Below, piece by piece: positions 47,022-60,213 of a stretch of DNA of 64,000 nucleotides (position 1 is the first letter of the stretch; every line of letters starts with the position of its first letter). Source of the DNA: an uncultured Verrucomicrobiae bacterium (lineage in GTDB: Bacteria > Verrucomicrobiota > Verrucomicrobiia > Chthoniobacterales > UBA10450); assembly GCA_963735805.1 (NCBI GenBank), contig CAVTMK010000001.1:224001-288000 (forward strand), written 5' to 3'. Under the pieces are notes generated by a model. That model searched no databases and was not told where the DNA came from. It worked only from the letters and a program-made list of their open reading frames with translations. Both the position numbers and the translations under genes were made by a program.

Positions 47022-47465
47022 ATGCGAAAATATACCTTTAGCCTGACGATCCTAACTCTCATCATGTCGTGTGCGCTTGCGTTCAGTGCATCTGATACTC
47101 CAGAAACCCGACGTCGAGAAGCCGAGCGCTATCTACAAGCTACCCCACCCAAAGCGTTGTTCGAAGACATGGCCGACAAGATGGCTGCGAACCTTCCCTC
47201 TGACCAACGCGATCAATTCAAGAAATTAATGACTTCGCAGCTCGACATCGCCGCACTGACGAAAGCGATGATTGACGCCATGGTGAAACATTTCACCACT
47301 GAAGAATTGAAGGCATTGGCAGATTTTTATGGTTCTCCGGTTGGGAAATCCGCGATGCAAAAGTTCGGTGCTTATATGGCGGACATCATGCCGACGATGG
47401 AAGCCGAGATCATGAAAGCGCAGGCGAAGATGAATCAGTCGCTACCCAATTCATCACCGAAGTAG
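47022..47465 (+). CDS. DUF2059 domain protein
   Basis: Signal peptide; HFTTEELKALADFYGSPVGK. Confidence 0.85.
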   Translation: MRKYTFSLTILTLIMSCALAFSASDTPETRRREAERYLQATPPKALFEDMADKMAANLPSDQRDQFKKLMTSQLDIAALTKAMIDAMVKHFTTEELKALADFYGSPVGKSAMQKFGAYMADIMPTMEAEIMKAQAKMNQSLPNSSPK

Positions 47466-47612
47466 ATCAGACCATTTGAAGTAGGCCGCGTCGGCCATGG
47501 CGAACCCGTTGACTCGCCATTTCGCCGAGGGACGCGCCGTAAAGGATTTTGTGCAAGCTCACGGCGCGAACCCCGGCGCGTCCTGGATTTTCTTGATTGA
47601 TCTGTGCTCGCT

Positions 47613-49898
47613 CTAATGCCGACGTCGATAGTTAATCGACCAGTTTTGCTGCTGAACGTTCGGAACCGGCGTGCCGGTTGCTGCGTCGTAGATGGAACGC
47701 GAGAAGAAAATCACTTGGTTCCCAGTGTTGTCCGGATCAAAGAATGGATCGCCCGGAGGCACGGGGATATCGAATTCCTCATCGCCTGAAGTAGTCAGAT
47801 CGAGATCGTGATCAATGAATTGGCCCCAGCCGTAAGTCCAATCCGAAAGATTGCGTGCGTCGGGCAGGCTTTGGTCGCCTTGATCGACAACGCTGTTACT
47901 AATGAAACGCGCACTGGGACGGGTCGCGCCCGCCGGCGACGACAATGAATCGCCATAGGCGGCCGAGACGAACCGCATGAGGTCCGAGCCCGCTGCGCCC
48001 CAGAACCGATGCGAGTTATTGTTTCCTACCCCGTCGATTGGCGCCGGATTGAATTGGGTGACATGGGCGCCGATCAACGCCGGAGGAAGAAATCCCGGCC
48101 GTGGCTGCAATCCTTGCAGCGTTGTGTCATCAAAGAAGAAAACGTTGTCCTGAATCTTCGTGAGGACGGTGTTGCGCCGAATGATGTCGGAAAGCCGCGT
48201 TTGCTGGAGCGCCTGCAGTTGTGTGCCGAAAAAAACTCGCTGATACCAGAAGCGGTCTCCGTCACGAACACGCTCGAATTGGTTCGCGATAATTCTCCGG
48301 AAGGTAGGACCGACGCTGCCGCCGGGAACATGATCTTCGGCAAGGCCGCCGATCCAAAGATCGATCGAATCGACATTTCCATAAAGCTGGAACAACTTCG
48401 CCTGAAGATCGGGATCGCTCGTAATCTGACTGAAATTCGTGACGCGCGGCAGCCCAAATGCGGCGCGCGTGCTGTTATAGTCCGCAAGCCCATGGTCGCG
48501 GCCGCGCTGAATATTCAGGGAGGCTAGATCAAAACCACCCGCGCCAGGAGGCCCAAACAAGAAATTACGCAGGTCGCCAACTATTTTTGTATCAACCGCC
48601 TGGGCATTGTCGGTTGCGAGATATTTGAGGATCGGGTCCGGACCGGTTTCCTTCAGCGGATCAGGATTAAAGAACGCGTCATCCAGATCAAGCTCTTCGC
48701 GGATGGGATTGCCTTCGTTGTCTAGAAACTCGACATCGTCATTGACGAGCGTATGGCCAATACGATAAGCCGCAGTCGAGAACTCAGTCGCGATTCCGGA
48801 ATTCACGTTATCCTTATACCCAGAATATGCCCGCAAGGCGTTCGGTCCGAGCAGCGCCGGAAGAAACTCGCGATAAGTAATCACCTGCAGTTCGCCGGCG
48901 ACGATTCGTCGCGTCATTTGGAAAATCTTTTCGTCGTTTAACGAATGATTGGCCGCGGCGATAGCGGCGGCTATTTGATTGTGTTCCCGCACAAACAGCG
49001 CCTGAATGGCGGTCAGTTCGACATTCTCGTTCGACCGCACATCTCCGCACAAAAACAATTCGTTATCGGGAACTCGATGCGCGTCGTTTGCGTTTGGCAG
49101 GCCGTTAACGTTGAGCGGAGGCAGATTGCCAGTACTCGTTTTCAGAGCTCCGCCTTGAAACGTGCGCAGGGCAGCAGTACGTCCCGCGTCGGAACCATAA
49201 ACAACCGAACCATCAAGATACGCCGTAATCTGACTGACTTGTTGCCGTGGATTCGACTCACTCGCCCGCAATTGAAAGCTATTGGTTCCCTGGTGCAGGT
49301 TCACTGGGACACTAAAGTTTCCTGCCAAATCCAGCGGCACTGGCGAACCGTTTATCGAAAAGGAAATCATCCATGGCGCACAAATGTCGTCCGTAACCGT
49401 GCCCCGCAAAACAATGCTTTGCGAAGTGACCGTGCTTCCGTTCGGTGGGTTCAGATTGGCGAACTCACCCGAAGTATTCTCCGTATTCGGGCTCCGGATT
49501 TCTTGAACACTCGAATTGATTCTCGGCCCGGCTGCCTGCCCGTTGCGATTGCGAATTTGCCGCTCCGCCACCCAGCCATCCAAGCCATCGTCAAACCGGA
49601 CCTTCCACCACCAAACATCAGCAGAGCGCACGGGACCTTCTGTGATTGCGCCTTGAAGCCCGACCGGTTCAGTCGTGATGAACTGGCCGGCGAATGGCGG
49701 CGCTAAAAATATTGCGCTTTGACTAATTGTCCGCACTTGTTCGCCGATGTAAAACGGCGAGGCGGCGGCAGCACCCTGGCTTCGTCCGTTGATCCCGCAA
49801 CAGATCAGAACTAACAGCAGGGAGGCATACCAGTGCCTGAACCGAATGAACGTGATGTTTTCAAAGAACCAAATGAGGTTGAGAGTATTGGTTTTCAT
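47613..49898 (-). CDS. Secreted animal-type heme peroxidase (peroxidase-cyclooxygenase superfamily), circularly permuted, with SH3-like and Ig-like domains
   Basis: ITAYLDGSVVYGS, GDVRSNEN, FVREHN, AYRIGH, NIQRGRDHG, DLWIGGLAE and RDGDRFWY are present; IDGVGNN and WGQFIDHD occur at the C-terminus. Confidence 0.9.
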   Translation of the reverse strand: MKTNTLNLIWFFENITFIRFRHWYASLLLVLICCGINGRSQGAAAASPFYIGEQVRTISQSAIFLAPPFAGQFITTEPVGLQGAITEGPVRSADVWWWKVRFDDGLDGWVAERQIRNRNGQAAGPRINSSVQEIRSPNTENTSGEFANLNPPNGSTVTSQSIVLRGTVTDDICAPWMISFSINGSPVPLDLAGNFSVPVNLHQGTNSFQLRASESNPRQQVSQITAYLDGSVVYGSDAGRTAALRTFQGGALKTSTGNLPPLNVNGLPNANDAHRVPDNELFLCGDVRSNENVELTAIQALFVREHNQIAAAIAAANHSLNDEKIFQMTRRIVAGELQVITYREFLPALLGPNALRAYSGYKDNVNSGIATEFSTAAYRIGHTLVNDDVEFLDNEGNPIREELDLDDAFFNPDPLKETGPDPILKYLATDNAQAVDTKIVGDLRNFLFGPPGAGGFDLASLNIQRGRDHGLADYNSTRAAFGLPRVTNFSQITSDPDLQAKLFQLYGNVDSIDLWIGGLAEDHVPGGSVGPTFRRIIANQFERVRDGDRFWYQRVFFGTQLQALQQTRLSDIIRRNTVLTKIQDNVFFFDDTTLQGLQPRPGFLPPALIGAHVTQFNPAPIDGVGNNNSHRFWGAAGSDLMRFVSAAYGDSLSSPAGATRPSARFISNSVVDQGDQSLPDARNLSDWTYGWGQFIDHDLDLTTSGDEEFDIPVPPGDPFFDPDNTGNQVIFFSRSIYDAATGTPVPNVQQQNWSINYRRRH

Positions 49899-49944: not shown

Positions 49945-50096
49945 GGGATAAAGCCGTCGGATTTTGTGATGAAGCGGTTTATGGACGTTATCGAGGCATT
50001 CCGGCGACCGCGGATCTGATTTTTACGTCGCTGCGTTGATAGGACCTACACAGGTTCTTTCACCCACTTCGTCACGCTAACGAGCCGCTTCGTCAC
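49945..50096. promoter_or_regulatory. Two pairs of LytTR-type direct repeats
   Basis: CTTCGTCAC at 50067 and 50088 (+); CTTCATCAC (49974-49966) and CTTTATCCC (49953-49945) on (-). Each pair is 9 bp with a 12-bp spacer. Confidence 0.7.
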
Positions 50097-50193: not shown

Positions 50194-51288
50194 GTGATAA
50201 AATTCTTTCGACCCATTCGGCCCTTGGTTTGCGGCTGGTTTCTCTCTTTCGCCGGCTGGGGTTTGGTCGCGTTTGTTCTCGGAGTAAACTTTGTCGGCAG
50301 CACAGATATTCCATGGACTCGCGCGCTTCACGCGGCGATTCGCGATCAATTGCCATGGGCAGTGCTGACTCCGTTGATCTTCCGATTCGCCACGCGCCAC
50401 CTGATCGATCATGCGAACTGGAAAAGGAATCTAGTACTGCAATTGATGACCGGCATCGTGGTGATCTGGGGAATCCACCAATGGAAACTTCTCATCGACC
50501 CGAATGGACCAGGCCCACACCATCGGCGGCCCATCTCTGCAAGAGATTTCGGCGGATCCGCAGGTCCGCAATTGGCAGCGCCACCGCCAGCCTGGGATTT
50601 TTTCCACTTCGCGAGTGTCGAAATTCCAATTTACCTCATGATCATTAGCGCCGCCCACACCTTGCATTTTTATCGGCGCGCCGAAATGCGATCCGGCCAG
50701 CTCGCCCGCGCGCGATTACACGCGCTGCAAACGCAGATTCATCCGCATTTTCTTTTTAATACGTTAAACACCATCGCGGGACTCATTCACAAGGCTCCGG
50801 ACAAAGCCGAGGTCGTCGTGCAGATGCTTGGCGATTTATTGCACTTCCTGCTAAGGGCGAATCCCGAGTCGGAGGTTCCATTGGAACGGGAAATTGAGTT
50901 CGTCGAAAAATATCTCGCCATCATGCACGTCCGCTTTGATAATCGCGTCCGGTACGAGTTCCAGATCGCGCCCGAGACTCTGGCCGCATCCGTTCCTGCC
51001 TTGCTTCTCCAGCCGATTGTCGAGAACGCAATCAAGCACGGTCTCGAACCCAAGCCGCGGGGTGGCAAGATCACCATCCAAGCGCAGCGCGACATGAGTT
51101 TTCTTCACCTTCGAGTCTCGGACACCGGTGTGGGCATCCGCAATTTGGAGAACGTCGAAGAGGGCATCGGTCTGACCAGCACGCGCGCGCGATTGCAGGA
51201 ATTGTATGGCGATGCCGCTTCGCTGGAGATTTTCAGTGACGGCGGGACCACTGTGTTAATCGAGATTCCATTTCGCCTGACCGCATGA
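50194..51288 (+). CDS. LytS/YehU-type sensor histidine kinase
   Basis: N-terminal TMs; LQTQIHPHFLFNTLNTI, LLQPIVENAIKHG, DTGVG and GIGL motifs. Confidence 0.95.
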   Translation: MIKFFRPIRPLVCGWFLSFAGWGLVAFVLGVNFVGSTDIPWTRALHAAIRDQLPWAVLTPLIFRFATRHLIDHANWKRNLVLQLMTGIVVIWGIHQWKLLIDPNGPGPHHRRPISARDFGGSAGPQLAAPPPAWDFFHFASVEIPIYLMIISAAHTLHFYRRAEMRSGQLARARLHALQTQIHPHFLFNTLNTIAGLIHKAPDKAEVVVQMLGDLLHFLLRANPESEVPLEREIEFVEKYLAIMHVRFDNRVRYEFQIAPETLAASVPALLLQPIVENAIKHGLEPKPRGGKITIQAQRDMSFLHLRVSDTGVGIRNLENVEEGIGLTSTRARLQELYGDAASLEIFSDGGTTVLIEIPFRLTA

Positions 51289-51482: not shown

Positions 51483-52253
51483 ATGGCAACTCTGGAAAAT
51501 AGGACAAGCCTGGGAGAGCGACTGATCCAGCAGGCGCTGCGCGTCCTGATTGTCGATGACGAACGAATCGCGCGACAGCGCCTACGGTGGCTGCTGGAGA
51601 AAGAACAAAACGTTGAAGTCGCAGGCGAATGCAGCGACGGCGGGTCGGTCCTGAGCGCCGTGCAAGAACATCGGCCCGATCTCGTGCTGCTCGACATTAA
51701 GATGCCGGACATGAATGGCTTCGACGTCATTCATGCGCTCGAACCATGCGACCGACCAGCAATTGTCTTTGTCACTGCTTTCGACAAGCACGCCGTTCAC
51801 GCTTTTGAAACATGTGCGCTCGACTATCTGCTCAAGCCGGTCGCCGCCCCGCGCTTGGAAAAGACCCTTATGCGGGTCCGGGACTATTTGCGCTCAACCG
51901 GATCGACGCCGTCACCACTTACACTTAGCGCAAACCGTCGCTTCAGCGTTCGCTGTGGATACCGCACCACATTTATCACGCCTGAGCAGATCGACTGGAT
52001 CGAGGCCAGTGGCAATTACGCAATTCTTCACGTGAACGCGCAAAACCACTTGCTTCGCGAAACAATGGCCCGTCTCGAATCCCTGCTACCGTCCGGCGGC
52101 TTCATGCGCGTTAGCCGCTCCGCCATCGTCCGTCTCAGTCGCGTTAAAGAAATTCAAACTACGCCCACAGGCCATCACTTCGCCGTATTGCGTAGCGGCA
52201 TGCACGTGTGCGTGACCAAGAGCATTCGCGAAGTCGCCGCCCGCCTGCACTGA
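51483..52253 (+). CDS. LytTR-family response regulator
   Basis: Receiver (IVDDE, LDIKMP, FVTAF, DYLLKP) plus LytTR domain (IDWIEASGNY, FMRVSRSAIV). Confidence 0.95.
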   Translation: MATLENRTSLGERLIQQALRVLIVDDERIARQRLRWLLEKEQNVEVAGECSDGGSVLSAVQEHRPDLVLLDIKMPDMNGFDVIHALEPCDRPAIVFVTAFDKHAVHAFETCALDYLLKPVAAPRLEKTLMRVRDYLRSTGSTPSPLTLSANRRFSVRCGYRTTFITPEQIDWIEASGNYAILHVNAQNHLLRETMARLESLLPSGGFMRVSRSAIVRLSRVKEIQTTPTGHHFAVLRSGMHVCVTKSIREVAARLH

Positions 52254-57065: not shown

Positions 57066-57641
57066 ATGCTCCTCTTGATCGATAACTACGATTCTTTCAC
57101 TTACAACCTTGTGCAGTACTTTGGTGAGCTCGGATGCGAGCTGGTTGTTAAGCGAAATGACGAAATCTCGCTTGATGAAATCGCTGCATTTGCGCCCGAG
57201 CAAATCTGCATCTCGCCGGGGCCTTGCACGCCGCGCGAAGCGGGAATCAGCAAAGACCTCGTCCTACGCTTTGGGACGAAGATTCCAATCCTCGGCGTTT
57301 GTCTTGGGCACCAGTGCATCGCCGAAGCGTATGGAGGAAAAATCGTGCGCGCTTCCAGGCTTGTACACGGCAAGTCATCCACGATAAGACACAACGGGAA
57401 CGGACTTTTTACCGATTTGCCAAGGCCGTTTGAAGCCGGTCGATACCACTCGCTGATCGTCGAGCGGAGTTCTCTCCCAGGGTGCCTTGAGATCATCGCG
57501 GAAAGCGAAGAGGGCGAGATCATGGCGTTGCATCATCGCGAGTTCCCCGTGCATGGGATGCAATTTCACCCGGAATCCGTTCTCACGCGCGATGGTAAAC
57601 AAATTCTCGCGCGCTTTCTATCGCATCCACGAAACCGATGA
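57066..57641 (+). CDS. trpG: Anthranilate synthase component II
   Basis: IDNYDSFTYNL, SPGP, GVCLGHQ and QFHPES motifs. Confidence 0.95.
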   Translation: MLLLIDNYDSFTYNLVQYFGELGCELVVKRNDEISLDEIAAFAPEQICISPGPCTPREAGISKDLVLRFGTKIPILGVCLGHQCIAEAYGGKIVRASRLVHGKSSTIRHNGNGLFTDLPRPFEAGRYHSLIVERSSLPGCLEIIAESEEGEIMALHHREFPVHGMQFHPESVLTRDGKQILARFLSHPRNR

Positions 57642-60213
57642 AAGCGCAGCTTACACCCACTGTGGAAGAGTTCTCCGAGATTGCGCGACGCGGCAACGTC
57701 GTCCCGATTTTCGCCGAGTTTATCGCGGACAACGAAACGCCCGTTTCGGCATTCAAGAAGTTGGACGCGTCTCGGACCGACTACAGTTTCCTCTTCGAAT
57801 CGACTGAGAAAAACGATGTGTCGGGACGCTTCTCCTTCGTCGGAATCAACCCGCGGATCGTGATGAAAAACTACGGGCGCGAGCTGCAAATCGTCGAGTT
57901 AGGAATCGAGCGACGGGTCGCAGCGACAGACAACCCGTTAGATCAGCTCCGGAGATTGATGGCGCGGTATCAGTTTGTCTCGCGTCCAGAACTGCCGCGA
58001 TTCAGCGGAGGCGCTGTCGGTTTTCTCGGCTACGAAGCAATTCACTTCTTCGAACCCAAAGTGCCAGTCGCTTCCCGGGACGAACTGCAATTACCAGAAG
58101 CCGTTTTCATCATTCCAAGCAATCTGCTCATCTTCGACCATCGGCTACGCACGTTGAAAATCGTTGCTAACGCGTTCCTTGAAGATGGCTCACCGGAAAA
58201 CGTCTACGCGCGAGCGGTTGATTCGATCGACGCTATCGCACGCACACTTACAAAATCGGTTGAACTTTCGATGCTTCCAACTGCCGACTTGGTCCCAGAG
58301 GCGGCTCACAGCAATATTCACCCGAACGAGTTCATCCATGCGGTGGAACGAGCCAAGGATTACATCCGCGCGGGTGATATCTTCCAGGTCGTGTTGTCGC
58401 AGCGATTCGAATCCGATTTCAGCGGTGATCCGCTCGATTTCTATCGATGCCTTCGTTTCGTCAATCCTTCGCCTTACATGTTTTGTCTTAAGTTCGGAAC
58501 GGATTTTGCGTTTGTTGGAAGTTCGCCGGAAATGCATGTCCGGCTAACCGGCGACGCGGTCGAGATTCGCCCGCTTGCTGGCACGCGCCCGCGTGGGGCT
58601 ACCTCCGCGCAGGACGAGGAGAATGCGGCCGACCTTCTCGCCGATCCCAAGGAACGCGCCGAGCACATCATGCTGGTCGATCTCGCGCGCAACGACATCG
58701 GTACGGGTCTCGGAGTTCGGCACGGTGCGCGTGACCGAATTGATGGGAATCGAGCGTTACAGCCACGTCATGCATATTGTTTCGAACGTCACTGGTCGCC
58801 TGCACAAGCGTTGCACTGGCTTCGAGCTGATCAAAGCGACGTTTCCAGCGGGCACCGTTTCCGGAGCGCCGAAAATTCGCGCCATGCAAATTATCAGCGA
58901 ACTGGAAAAGACCAGACGCGGCTGTTACGCGGGCGCGGTCGGCTACTTCGGATTCGATGGCAATGTTGATTCCTGCATCGGGTTGCGCTGCGCGGTTTTA
59001 AAAAATGGGAAGGCATATTTTCAAACCGGCGCGGGCATCGTCGCCGACTCAAATCCACATTCGGAATACGAGGAAACCGTTAATAAAGCGCGTGCGATGG
59101 CAAAAGCACTCTCAATGGTAAAACAGATCAGGCCACCGGCGACCGCACGCAATTGCAATGGGACTGGCATTGGCGATTTCGAACTGTGTGAAATAACGCA
59201 ACGCCTGATGCGGGGCGAAAATCTCAGCCATACTGAGGCCGGAAATTTTTTAGGGTGTCTGCTTAATCCCGTAGCTACCGATGCACAAATAGCGGCGGCA
59301 CTTACCAGTCTGACCAAAAAGGGAGAGACCTCCGACGAGCTCGCAGGCATTGCTGAAGCGATGCGGGATCGTGCATTGCCAGTGAGATCGCGTCACTCGC
59401 GTTTTATCGATACAGCCGGTACGGGATCAAGCGCTACAAAAACCTTTAATGTTTCAACAGCAGCAGCATTCGTGATTGCGGGTGCCGGCCTGCCTGTAGC
59501 GAAACACGGCTCTCGGGCTGCAACATCTCGTTGCGGCAGCGCCGACGTCCTTCAGGCGTTGGGCGTCAAGACAGACGCTTCACCGGCGACCGTAGAGCGC
59601 TGCCTTAACGAACACGAAATCTGTTTCATGTTTGCGCCGCTTTTTCACAGCGCTGCGGCCCGTGTTGCGCAGGTGCGGCGCGAGCTCGGAGTGCACACGG
59701 TATTCAACTTGCTCGGTCCCCTAACAAATCCCGCGCGGGCGCCGTTCCAGATCCTGGGCGTCTGGCAACGTTCATTACTTGAACGCGTCGCGTCAGCACT
59801 TGTTCGCCTCGGCGTTAGAAAAGCGTGGATTGTGCATGGCGCCGACGGACTGGATGAAATAACAATTGCGGACAAAACCCACGTCGCCGCCTGTTCGTTC
59901 ACAGGAGAAGTAGAAACGTTTACCGTCTCACCTGAAGACTTTGGCTTGGAACGTCAGGCCTTCGACGGATTTCGTGGAAAGGGCCCCGGAAGGAAACGCA
60001 GAACTGATCCGCGCAGTTTTGCAAGGCGTTAAGACCAGCGCTGTGACTGTAGCGCGCGATCTGGTCATCATTAATGCCGCTGCCGCGCTCCATCTCGCCG
60101 GCGTTGCCCGGGATCTCCATCATGCGGCTGACCTCGCTCGTGAAAGCATCGACAGCGGTCGAGCCGCGTCGAAACTGGATATGCTGATCCGGGAGACAAA
60201 TCGAAGTTCATGA
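57638..60213 (+). CDS. trpE: Anthranilate synthase component I fused to anthranilate phosphoribosyltransferase (TrpE-TrpD); +1 frameshifts near 58702 and 59985
   Basis: TrpE motifs (FLFES, GDIFQVVLSQ, NPSPYM, EHIMLVDLARND | YSHVMH, PAGTVSGAPK) run without a stop into TrpD (DTAGTG, FNVSTAA, KHGSR, FNLLGPLTNP, GLDE | INAAAAL). Confidence 0.85.

Follow-up and report, generated by a model that had tools for sequence, protein, structure and literature searches.

A circularly permuted haem peroxidase with a predicted position in an immunoglobulin-like hairpin in soil and freshwater bacteria

Introduction

The myeloperoxidase/lactoperoxidase fold has so far been treated as having a single chain order, in which the block with the distal histidine precedes the block with the proximal histidine. 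Can this fold also be encoded in another order, and can the reordered enzyme be carried inside a second domain? These questions are raised by a gene in a 64,000-nucleotide stretch of DNA (hereafter, the window; contig CAVTMK010000001.1, positions 224,001 to 288,000) from an uncultured Verrucomicrobiae bacterium (GTDB lineage UBA10450). An initial annotation, made from the sequence alone, described the product of this gene as a circularly permuted animal-type haem peroxidase apparently inserted in an immunoglobulin (Ig)-like domain. Our analysis makes it very probable that the protein is a conserved and probably active haem enzyme of the peroxidase-cyclooxygenase superfamily, permuted between TGT and xxxNPRQQ and set in the F-G hairpin of the Ig domain; it would be held at the cell envelope and oxidise iodide or thiocyanate. 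What is new is a family, comprising more than 100 sequence clusters, whose two histidines come in the opposite order along the chain and whose whole 530-residue enzyme is placed, by prediction, in an Ig hairpin. Literature searches on permutation in this superfamily returned no description, most subscription journals and supplements lying outside their scope, and the string "permut" is missing from the available main text of PMC3396595, PMC4420034, and PMC11776367.

The two halves of the peroxidase are encoded in reverse

The open reading frame (ORF) at 47613-49898 on the reverse strand comprises 761 uninterrupted codons, and G+C content is even across the region. Among solved structures its best phmmer match is CyanoPOX of Cyanobacterium sp. 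TDX16 (8S6C_A, E 7e-163), and this match falls into two blocks in reversed order: residues 217-597 correspond to 8S6C residues 132-515 (E 7e-127) and residues 620-743 to 8S6C residues 5-129 (E 2e-35). The two stretches tile CyanoPOX once, leaving only its residues 130-131 unmatched and no block duplicated, which bears out the earlier claim of a single frame with each block present once; the phmmer matches to DdPoxA and myeloperoxidase are reversed likewise. The Pfam family An_peroxidase (PF03098; 507 bits against a cut-off of 25) gives the two hits in reversed model order that the annotation had predicted, with model positions 141-530 at residues 213-587 and positions 4-139 in the C-terminal piece. 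Thus, the window ORF departs from the canonical superfamily order. The 8S6C and Pfam alignments agree in placing the cut where it had first been put, inside a loop for which most canonical relatives have the sequence YDxxTGT-xxx-NPRQQ. At the level of sequence, the ORF is thereby confirmed as a circularly permuted lactoperoxidase-like peroxidase. No NCBIfam family matches the protein, and the ESM Atlas gives a single cluster of 56 An_peroxidase proteins that carries no named function. In the genome (3.52 Mb, 94% complete), tblastn found no second peroxidase copy.

An unusual order could, taken alone, betray a misassembly or a one-off chimera. We give this explanation practically no weight and rejected it, because independent homologues in 113 clusters and 51 genomic loci share the order and because contigs bridge the junctions. 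The homologues are the best 120 from a 90%-identity collection, ranked by likeness to the permuted query, and for this reason the 113 permuted proteins among them convey no frequency; the other seven have a tandem N-C-N-C order, where N and C denote the blocks that come first and last in canonical enzymes. The permuted proteins divide into 83 with an SH3-Ig-C-N order, 26 with Ig-C-N, and four partial C-N proteins. The search of related genomes that the annotation had proposed gave the same picture, in that the best 80 of 503 GTDB loci comprised 51 of the permuted type and 29 canonical ones, the latter nearly all from Planctomycetota. Among the 51, the Ig-C-N order is in frame in 42, cut short by the end of a contig in four, and carried by broken frames in two, while three have no Ig insertion. 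At the window locus, contigs of run X2, which are contigs and not reads and may belong to the source study, cover the boundary between Ig and C-block (49024-49372) and, with two differences, both the linker and the tail junction (47400-48920).

The carriers are soil and freshwater bacteria, chiefly Verrucomicrobiota: Ca. Udaeobacter (88-89% identity), Spartobacteria, Terrimicrobiaceae, Luteolibacter, and Opitutaceae. Single carrier bins come from Patescibacteria, Omnitrophota, Planctomycetales, and a deltaproteobacterial lineage. No conclusion drawn here depends on genomes flagged as unpublished. A genome of the same family also holds a 1162-amino acid frame (G017:C2:1881604-1883001) that is colinear with query residues 219-697 at 39% identity and is possibly permuted or tandem. 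Tandem two-domain peroxidases were noted as P0086, P0101, P0108, P0112, P0116, P0117, P0120, and P0124; seven of these eight bear a type IX secretion system (T9SS) sorting tail, and linkers in the T9SS group are about 10 residues long.

The active-site residues are conserved across the permutation

Residue roles were taken from CyanoPOX, as given in the available text of PMC11776367, through the 8S6C alignment, and conservation was scored in the 110 Ig-bearing members of 114 permuted sequences, with the four partial ones excluded. The N-block supplies the distal Q693, D696, and H697 together with the calcium ligand D698, and the C-block supplies the distal R288 and E291, the proximal R379, H382, N462, and R465, and the calcium ligands T225, Y227, D229, and S231. 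All are invariant (110/110) except D698, which is present in 109, and T225 and Y227, which show conservative swaps to Ser and Phe. The distal signature GQxxDHD, as given in the accessible part of PMC4420034, reads GQFIDHD at residues 692-698, while the distal RxxE pair and the proximal His with its partner Asn are found as R288/E291, H382, and N462, corresponding to R199/E202, H294, and N376 of CyanoPOX. Since D698 lies in the N-block and T225, Y227, D229, and S231 in the C-block, the distal calcium site spans both sides of the permutation. The earlier statement that all motifs are intact therefore extends to the catalytic, haem-linking, and calcium residues of the aligned members. Directly after E291, Asn292 is present in 110/110; we take this to be the position of the Met that forms the sulfonium link in myeloperoxidase, and no Met stands there.

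The ratio of nonsynonymous to synonymous substitution rates (dN/dS), computed against three Ca. Udaeobacter orthologues (three pairs), is 0.03-0.07 in the N-block and 0.05-0.11 in the C-block, and both peroxidase halves are under purifying selection. Values elsewhere are 0.08-0.22 in the linker, 0.09-0.12 in Ig strands A-F, and 0.06-0.42 in the short tail. The linker itself is 29-35 residues long in 117 permuted members.

A predicted insertion in an Ig hairpin

The initial annotation had also proposed that the last strand of the Ig domain follows the peroxidase. In an AlphaFold2 model built on the alignment of the 110 Ig-bearing members, the best of five models (predicted local distance difference test [pLDDT] 83, predicted template modelling score [pTM] 0.85) has strands at 204-214 and 747-757, and the latter closes the sandwich. 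Its C-block superposes on 8S6C over 377 residues (Z 32.1, root-mean-square deviation 1.8), so that the helical fold of the haem core is predicted. Big_7 matches Ig strands A-F (28.8 bits against a cut-off of 24.1), as does Glucodextran_B, and the model has the seven-stranded bacterial Ig sandwich of these families. A structure search aligned many Ig sandwiches with the model from about residue 145 to 757-761, among them 6tn6 (Z 8.8), the glucodextranase 1ulv (76 residues aligned), and 4kdw (87/102). Because these matches reach 757-761, the tail belongs to the Ig domain in the model, and because this C-terminal strand completes the sandwich, the enzyme is placed in the Ig F-G hairpin. As a description of the present topology, then, the proposal that the permuted enzyme sits in an Ig loop stands.

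Two further observations concern the same turn. The tail has an alternating pattern, with hydrophobic residues at 753, 755, and 757 in 91, 109, and 106 of 109 members, respectively. Intact relatives of the Ig domain (in loci L049, L050, and L095) read GxN-F strand-D-xxGN-G strand, and the peroxidase stands at that very turn. Closure of the hairpin would set residue 743 beside residue 216, which are neighbours in the native chain. In the mechanism that we propose, the linker of about 30 residues would join the old termini and the N-block would fold back onto the C-block, so that distal His697, Gln693, and Asp696 again face a haem held by His382, while the Ig hairpin (strands 204-214 and 747-757) would keep the new ends side by side at the point where the native chain ran on unbroken.

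The remaining modules are consistent with a surface protein. Model residues 49-118 match the SH3b domains of the autolysin 5jqc and the endolysin 4krt (VIA-align Z 8.6), as the annotation had suggested, with Pfam SH3_3 below its cut-off (12.4 bits against 27, E 0.19); the module is missing from 26 of 109 Ig-bearing homologues. Of 103 members, 93 have a hydrophobic stretch at the N-terminus, which makes the proposed signal peptide plausible. Two variants of the architecture were seen: in a Patescibacteria bin (L097:5815-8373) the Ig-inserted protein bears another SH3b-like module behind the tail strand, and the permuted protein P0125 has about 130 additional C-terminal residues with DxDGDG motifs beyond the Ig G strand.

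How the permuted gene may have arisen

In C-block trees, the permuted proteins nest among canonical Planctomycetota peroxidases. The tree relatives are planctomycete enzymes, and one cluster contains a dockerin-named member; RbMPO of Rhodopirellula baltica and LspPOX are themselves not among the tree rows. The short planctomycete peroxidases and peroxidockerins of Family 6, to which these two belong, share the YDxxTGT-xxx-NPRQQ loop, whereas the window protein has a swapped block order and no dockerin (no hit at E up to 1) and has gained Ig and SH3b modules. Descent from the canonical peroxidase that is common in the same bacterial family was rejected, since the loop differs and a joint clade fails the approximately unbiased (AU) test (p 0.0002).

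A C-linker-N unit within a tandem pair is the classic intermediate of permutation by duplication and deletion. Such an internal unit is contained in PepA of Pseudomonas putida, from the part of PMC3396595 available, and in the Bacteroidota N-C-N-C proteins with a T9SS tail, although in these two-domain peroxidases each domain is canonical. The Bacteroidota tandem enzymes are not sister to the permuted clade in the best tree; their parentage is not rejected by the AU test (p 0.09). The order host(A-F)-C-linker-N-host(G) could result if a gene circle recombined with an Ig gene by a single crossover, or else if a tandem pair underwent duplication and deletion. A four-residue echo at both junctions (STPN or TTPN in 55/110, against ATPN, STPN, PVPN, and variants) is, as a sequence feature, suggestive only. 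Among 401 genomes searched with the Ig domain, 18, including the source genome, have an Ig ahead of a peroxidase, and the search for a pre-insertion host gene in the same set found only two distant intact Ig domains.

There is, however, a different history to consider, with no insertion event at all: a free-standing permutant may have come first and been fused behind a complete Ig, its own tail then displacing the last Ig strand. Free forms with the same cut exist, in that L096:5707-7687 and L098:5809-7686 run from a leader straight into the C-block (L096 being frameshifted in the linker), and L095:379-2532 encodes a complete Ig, which keeps its own G strand, followed by a permuted enzyme with the same cut and no Ig insertion. 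In addition, the start of the tail, (A/S)TP(N/T)VQQQ, resembles the native loop STPNPRQQ, and the AU test does not reject a topology that keeps the free forms apart from the clade with the Ig (p 0.39, 27 rows). The best tree (59 selected rows) argues the other way: within a clade of 22 members (100/99), L095, L096, and L098 group with L097 (97/92), which bears the Ig, and this grouping suggests that the three loci arose through loss of the Ig; the long-branch, divergent P0126 shifts placement between trees. Moreover, the family Ig profile does not match the L095 Ig, and the tail shows the alternating pattern and YxP end typical of Ig G strands. We regard fusion of a free permutant as a credible history, if the less probable one. 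L095, L096, and L098 all terminate in a Q(F/L)xFE-like tail.

A second permutation of the same fold

Another order, here called cp-B, was found in 9 of 150 representatives in a profile search. It consists of the last ~40 N-block residues, the C-block, a linker of ~25 residues, and the segment from DGxxNN to GQxxxHD. Among the 120 proteins listed in a follow-up search, 38 have the distal motif solely after the C-block (34 by script, minus two tandem proteins, plus six with variant motifs), and a further five truncated proteins among those listed share the cp-B upstream junction. Members include P0199, P0233, P0234, P0242, P0252, P0266, P0269, P0290, P0302, and P0313, and the named carriers are Planctomycetota, including a cultured Blastopirellula, and Cyanobacteria. 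The ester-forming Asp is often replaced in cp-B. The RHS giant P0251, which contains cp-B, also has a C-terminal Pfam match to an ADP-ribosyltransferase-like (Scabin-like) domain.

The two cuts differ in their relation to myeloperoxidase. The cp-B cut follows DHDLxLTP, approximately at the end of the myeloperoxidase light chain, unlike that of the window family, for which the proteolytic cut of myeloperoxidase lies ~46 residues upstream (heavy chain residue 47 = query 216). In mature myeloperoxidase and eosinophil peroxidase, the segment with the distal His resides on a separate light chain, which matches residues 621-703 of the window protein; these enzymes show that the segment can be detached from the core. 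cp-B forms a clade (support 99), and a single origin for both permutant families was rejected (joint clade AU p 0.0036); by these sequence comparisons, permutation of the peroxidase arose at least two times independently.

In the model of P0313 (pLDDT 76, pTM 0.61, 25 sequences), residues 261-685 align with 8S6C 89-508 (Z 31.4) and the region across 218-842 matches transthyretin-like domains (5aq0, Z 10.4, 76/82). As modelled, cp-B is inserted in a transthyretin-like (CarboxypepD_reg) beta-sandwich of surface and RHS proteins. In P0269, P0317, P0321, and P0323, the sequences put it into another loop of this transthyretin-like host. Tentatively, permutation may repeatedly yield a plug-in module, in that after each of at least two independent cuts the enzyme entered a loop of some surface beta-sandwich; the host hairpin would clamp the opened loop and might thereby control haem loading or halogenation. 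Gene circles formed from tandem copies would integrate, which would explain cp-B in two host loops, and gating could occur by folding, tension, or ligand binding, giving a natural counterpart of engineered switches made by inserting circular permutants. In the engineered inserts of the cpGFP-type sensors, the termini likewise lie in one loop and the domain can be plugged into a host loop, whereas the present case is natural and involves a 530-residue haem enzyme with an Ig hairpin as host. The fold can apparently be opened and inserted into other proteins, which offers two tolerated cut sites for insertable or switchable haloperoxidases and a natural test case of how large enzymes become inserted domains.

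Probable function at the cell surface

The closest solved relative, CyanoPOX, shares 55% identity with the window protein over the structurally aligned block and has the same distal, proximal, ester-forming, and calcium residues. It is described in the accessible text of PMC11776367 as an exported bacterial enzyme without disulfides, traits that the window protein probably shares, that oxidises iodide best; it differs in its canonical order and single domain with a PEP-CTERM tail, lacking both Ig insertion and SH3b. Because of kinship with CyanoPOX, DdPoxA, which is reported to oxidise iodide and thiocyanate (PMC5787809, in part), and RbMPO, which is reported to kill Escherichia coli (PMC10204396, in part), we regard the window protein as likely to be a secreted, wall-bound iodide/thiocyanate peroxidase. 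After export, the SH3b-like module would hold it at the cell envelope, with the Ig domain serving as stalk and as clamp on the opened loop, and hydrogen peroxide would be used to oxidise iodide or thiocyanate, perhaps bromide, and also phenolics as CyanoPOX does.

The enzyme might instead be active mainly as a scavenger of hydrogen peroxide, or as a cell-surface oxidase that takes single electrons from phenolics or Mn(II). The same partial sources describe oxidation of ABTS, guaiacol, and DMP by CyanoPOX (PMC11776367) and catalase activity in RbMPO (PMC10204396), and MopA is reported to oxidise Mn(II). Unannotated neighbour clustering of 51 loci, which was dominated by shadow ORFs, gave no recurring hydrogen peroxide-producing neighbour and no clear partner oxidase. 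In contrast, the distal Gln and both ester-forming acids, D696 and E291, are invariant, and two ester bonds accompany bromide oxidation and are typical of bromide-capable enzymes in the portion of PMC5787809 available. We consider a primary role other than (pseudo)halide oxidation possible but rather unlikely. A catalytically dead domain, serving as a structural spacer or adhesin, is very improbable: the architecture is that of a surface protein and some assemblies hold frameshifted copies, but the tested catalytic and haem-contact residues are invariant in 110/110 and purifying selection is strong.

Several observations weigh against the reading of a conserved, active, Ig-inserted enzyme. The remaining four of the five models have pLDDT 74-78, and the N-block has weak stretches (pLDDT <50 at 649-657 and ~65-74 at 701-730). 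Both structural aligners are sequential, hence the position given here for the N-block on the core is a proposed one. In the Pfam search, residues 216-225 can also be taken as the last Ig strand, and the single Ig and SH3 Z-scores (7-9) are within the range that the tool calls common. The distribution is patchy, with matches listed in 8 of 300 same-family genomes (five copies intact, one divided between two contigs, two frameshifted) and, across the phylum, the gene in just two of 400 near-complete genomes. RNA run X18 contributed two 151-nt identical contigs, and X20 a single upstream piece; such sparse evidence does not establish transcription.

A candidate LytTR operator

Genes for a LytS-type kinase and a LytTR regulator lie upstream of the peroxidase gene and diverge from it. 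Two pairs of repeats with a period of 21 bp lie in the 295-bp spacer, one toward each gene. Their layout is that of LytTR operators, in which two direct repeats of ~9 bp, separated by 12 bp, precede the promoter (PMC6193735). The pattern matches twice in the spacer and in none of 100 shuffles, and the same two pairs are its only exact matches in the 3.5-Mb genome; an earlier repeat scan using the core GTGACGAAG missed most boxes. The pair proximal to the peroxidase is conserved in three orthologues. With up to two mismatches, this pair occurs within 500 bp upstream in 4 of 46 permuted loci, exactly those four with LytS and LytTR nearby; none of the 25 canonical loci has it, and it turns up once among 46 in-gene controls. 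Because the pattern was derived from three of the four loci, L054 is the sole independent test.

The repeats thus point to a lineage-restricted link between LytTR and the permuted peroxidase, which may be controlled by the neighbouring pair. Scans for sigma-70 promoters and terminators gave nothing exceeding chance. In Ca. Udaeobacter-like soil bacteria, the protein may serve in defence or detoxification at the surface, and a regulator and an operator can be proposed for it. LytTR-like genes also lie close to canonical peroxidase genes in L102, L104, L120, L127, and L129, with the repeat pattern not upstream where examined.

Features of the locus

Table 1. Positions in the window of the peroxidase ORF, its predicted parts, and the neighbouring candidate regulators
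Feature	Position	Strand	Basis or remark
Whole ORF, 761 aa	47613..49898	-	Leader, SH3b-like, Ig(A-F), peroxidase C-block, linker, peroxidase N-block, Ig(G)
N-terminal leader (residues 1-45), probable export signal	49764..49898	-	Helix 9-33, low pLDDT
SH3b-like module (residues 49-118)	49545..49754	-	VIA-align fold match
Ig-like domain strands A-F (residues 145-214)	49257..49466	-	Big_7, Glucodextran_B; model strands
Peroxidase C-block (residues 216-590), normally ~132-515	48129..49253	-	8S6C alignment
Linker (residues 591-619), old C-terminus to old N-terminus	48042..48128	-	Length across members
Peroxidase N-block (residues 620-743), normally 5-129	47670..48041	-	8S6C, Pfam
Ig strand G (residues 747-757), predicted to close the Ig sandwich	47628..47660	-	Model strand, pLDDT ~93
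Pair of direct repeats of LytTR type (period 21 bp), oriented toward the peroxidase gene	49945..49973	-	Pattern scan
Second pair of LytTR-type repeats, oriented toward the kinase gene	50068..50096	+	Pattern scan
LytS/AlgZ-type histidine kinase, divergent, candidate regulator	50194..51288	+	PF06580 and HATPase_c
LytTR response regulator, candidate regulator	51483..52253	+	Response_reg and LytTR; best NCBIfam BtsR, below cut-off

Elsewhere in the window, an anthranilate-synthase-component-I-like ORF occupies 57638-58969 on the forward strand; judged by eye, its similarity seemingly fades near the end, which may reflect a frameshift.

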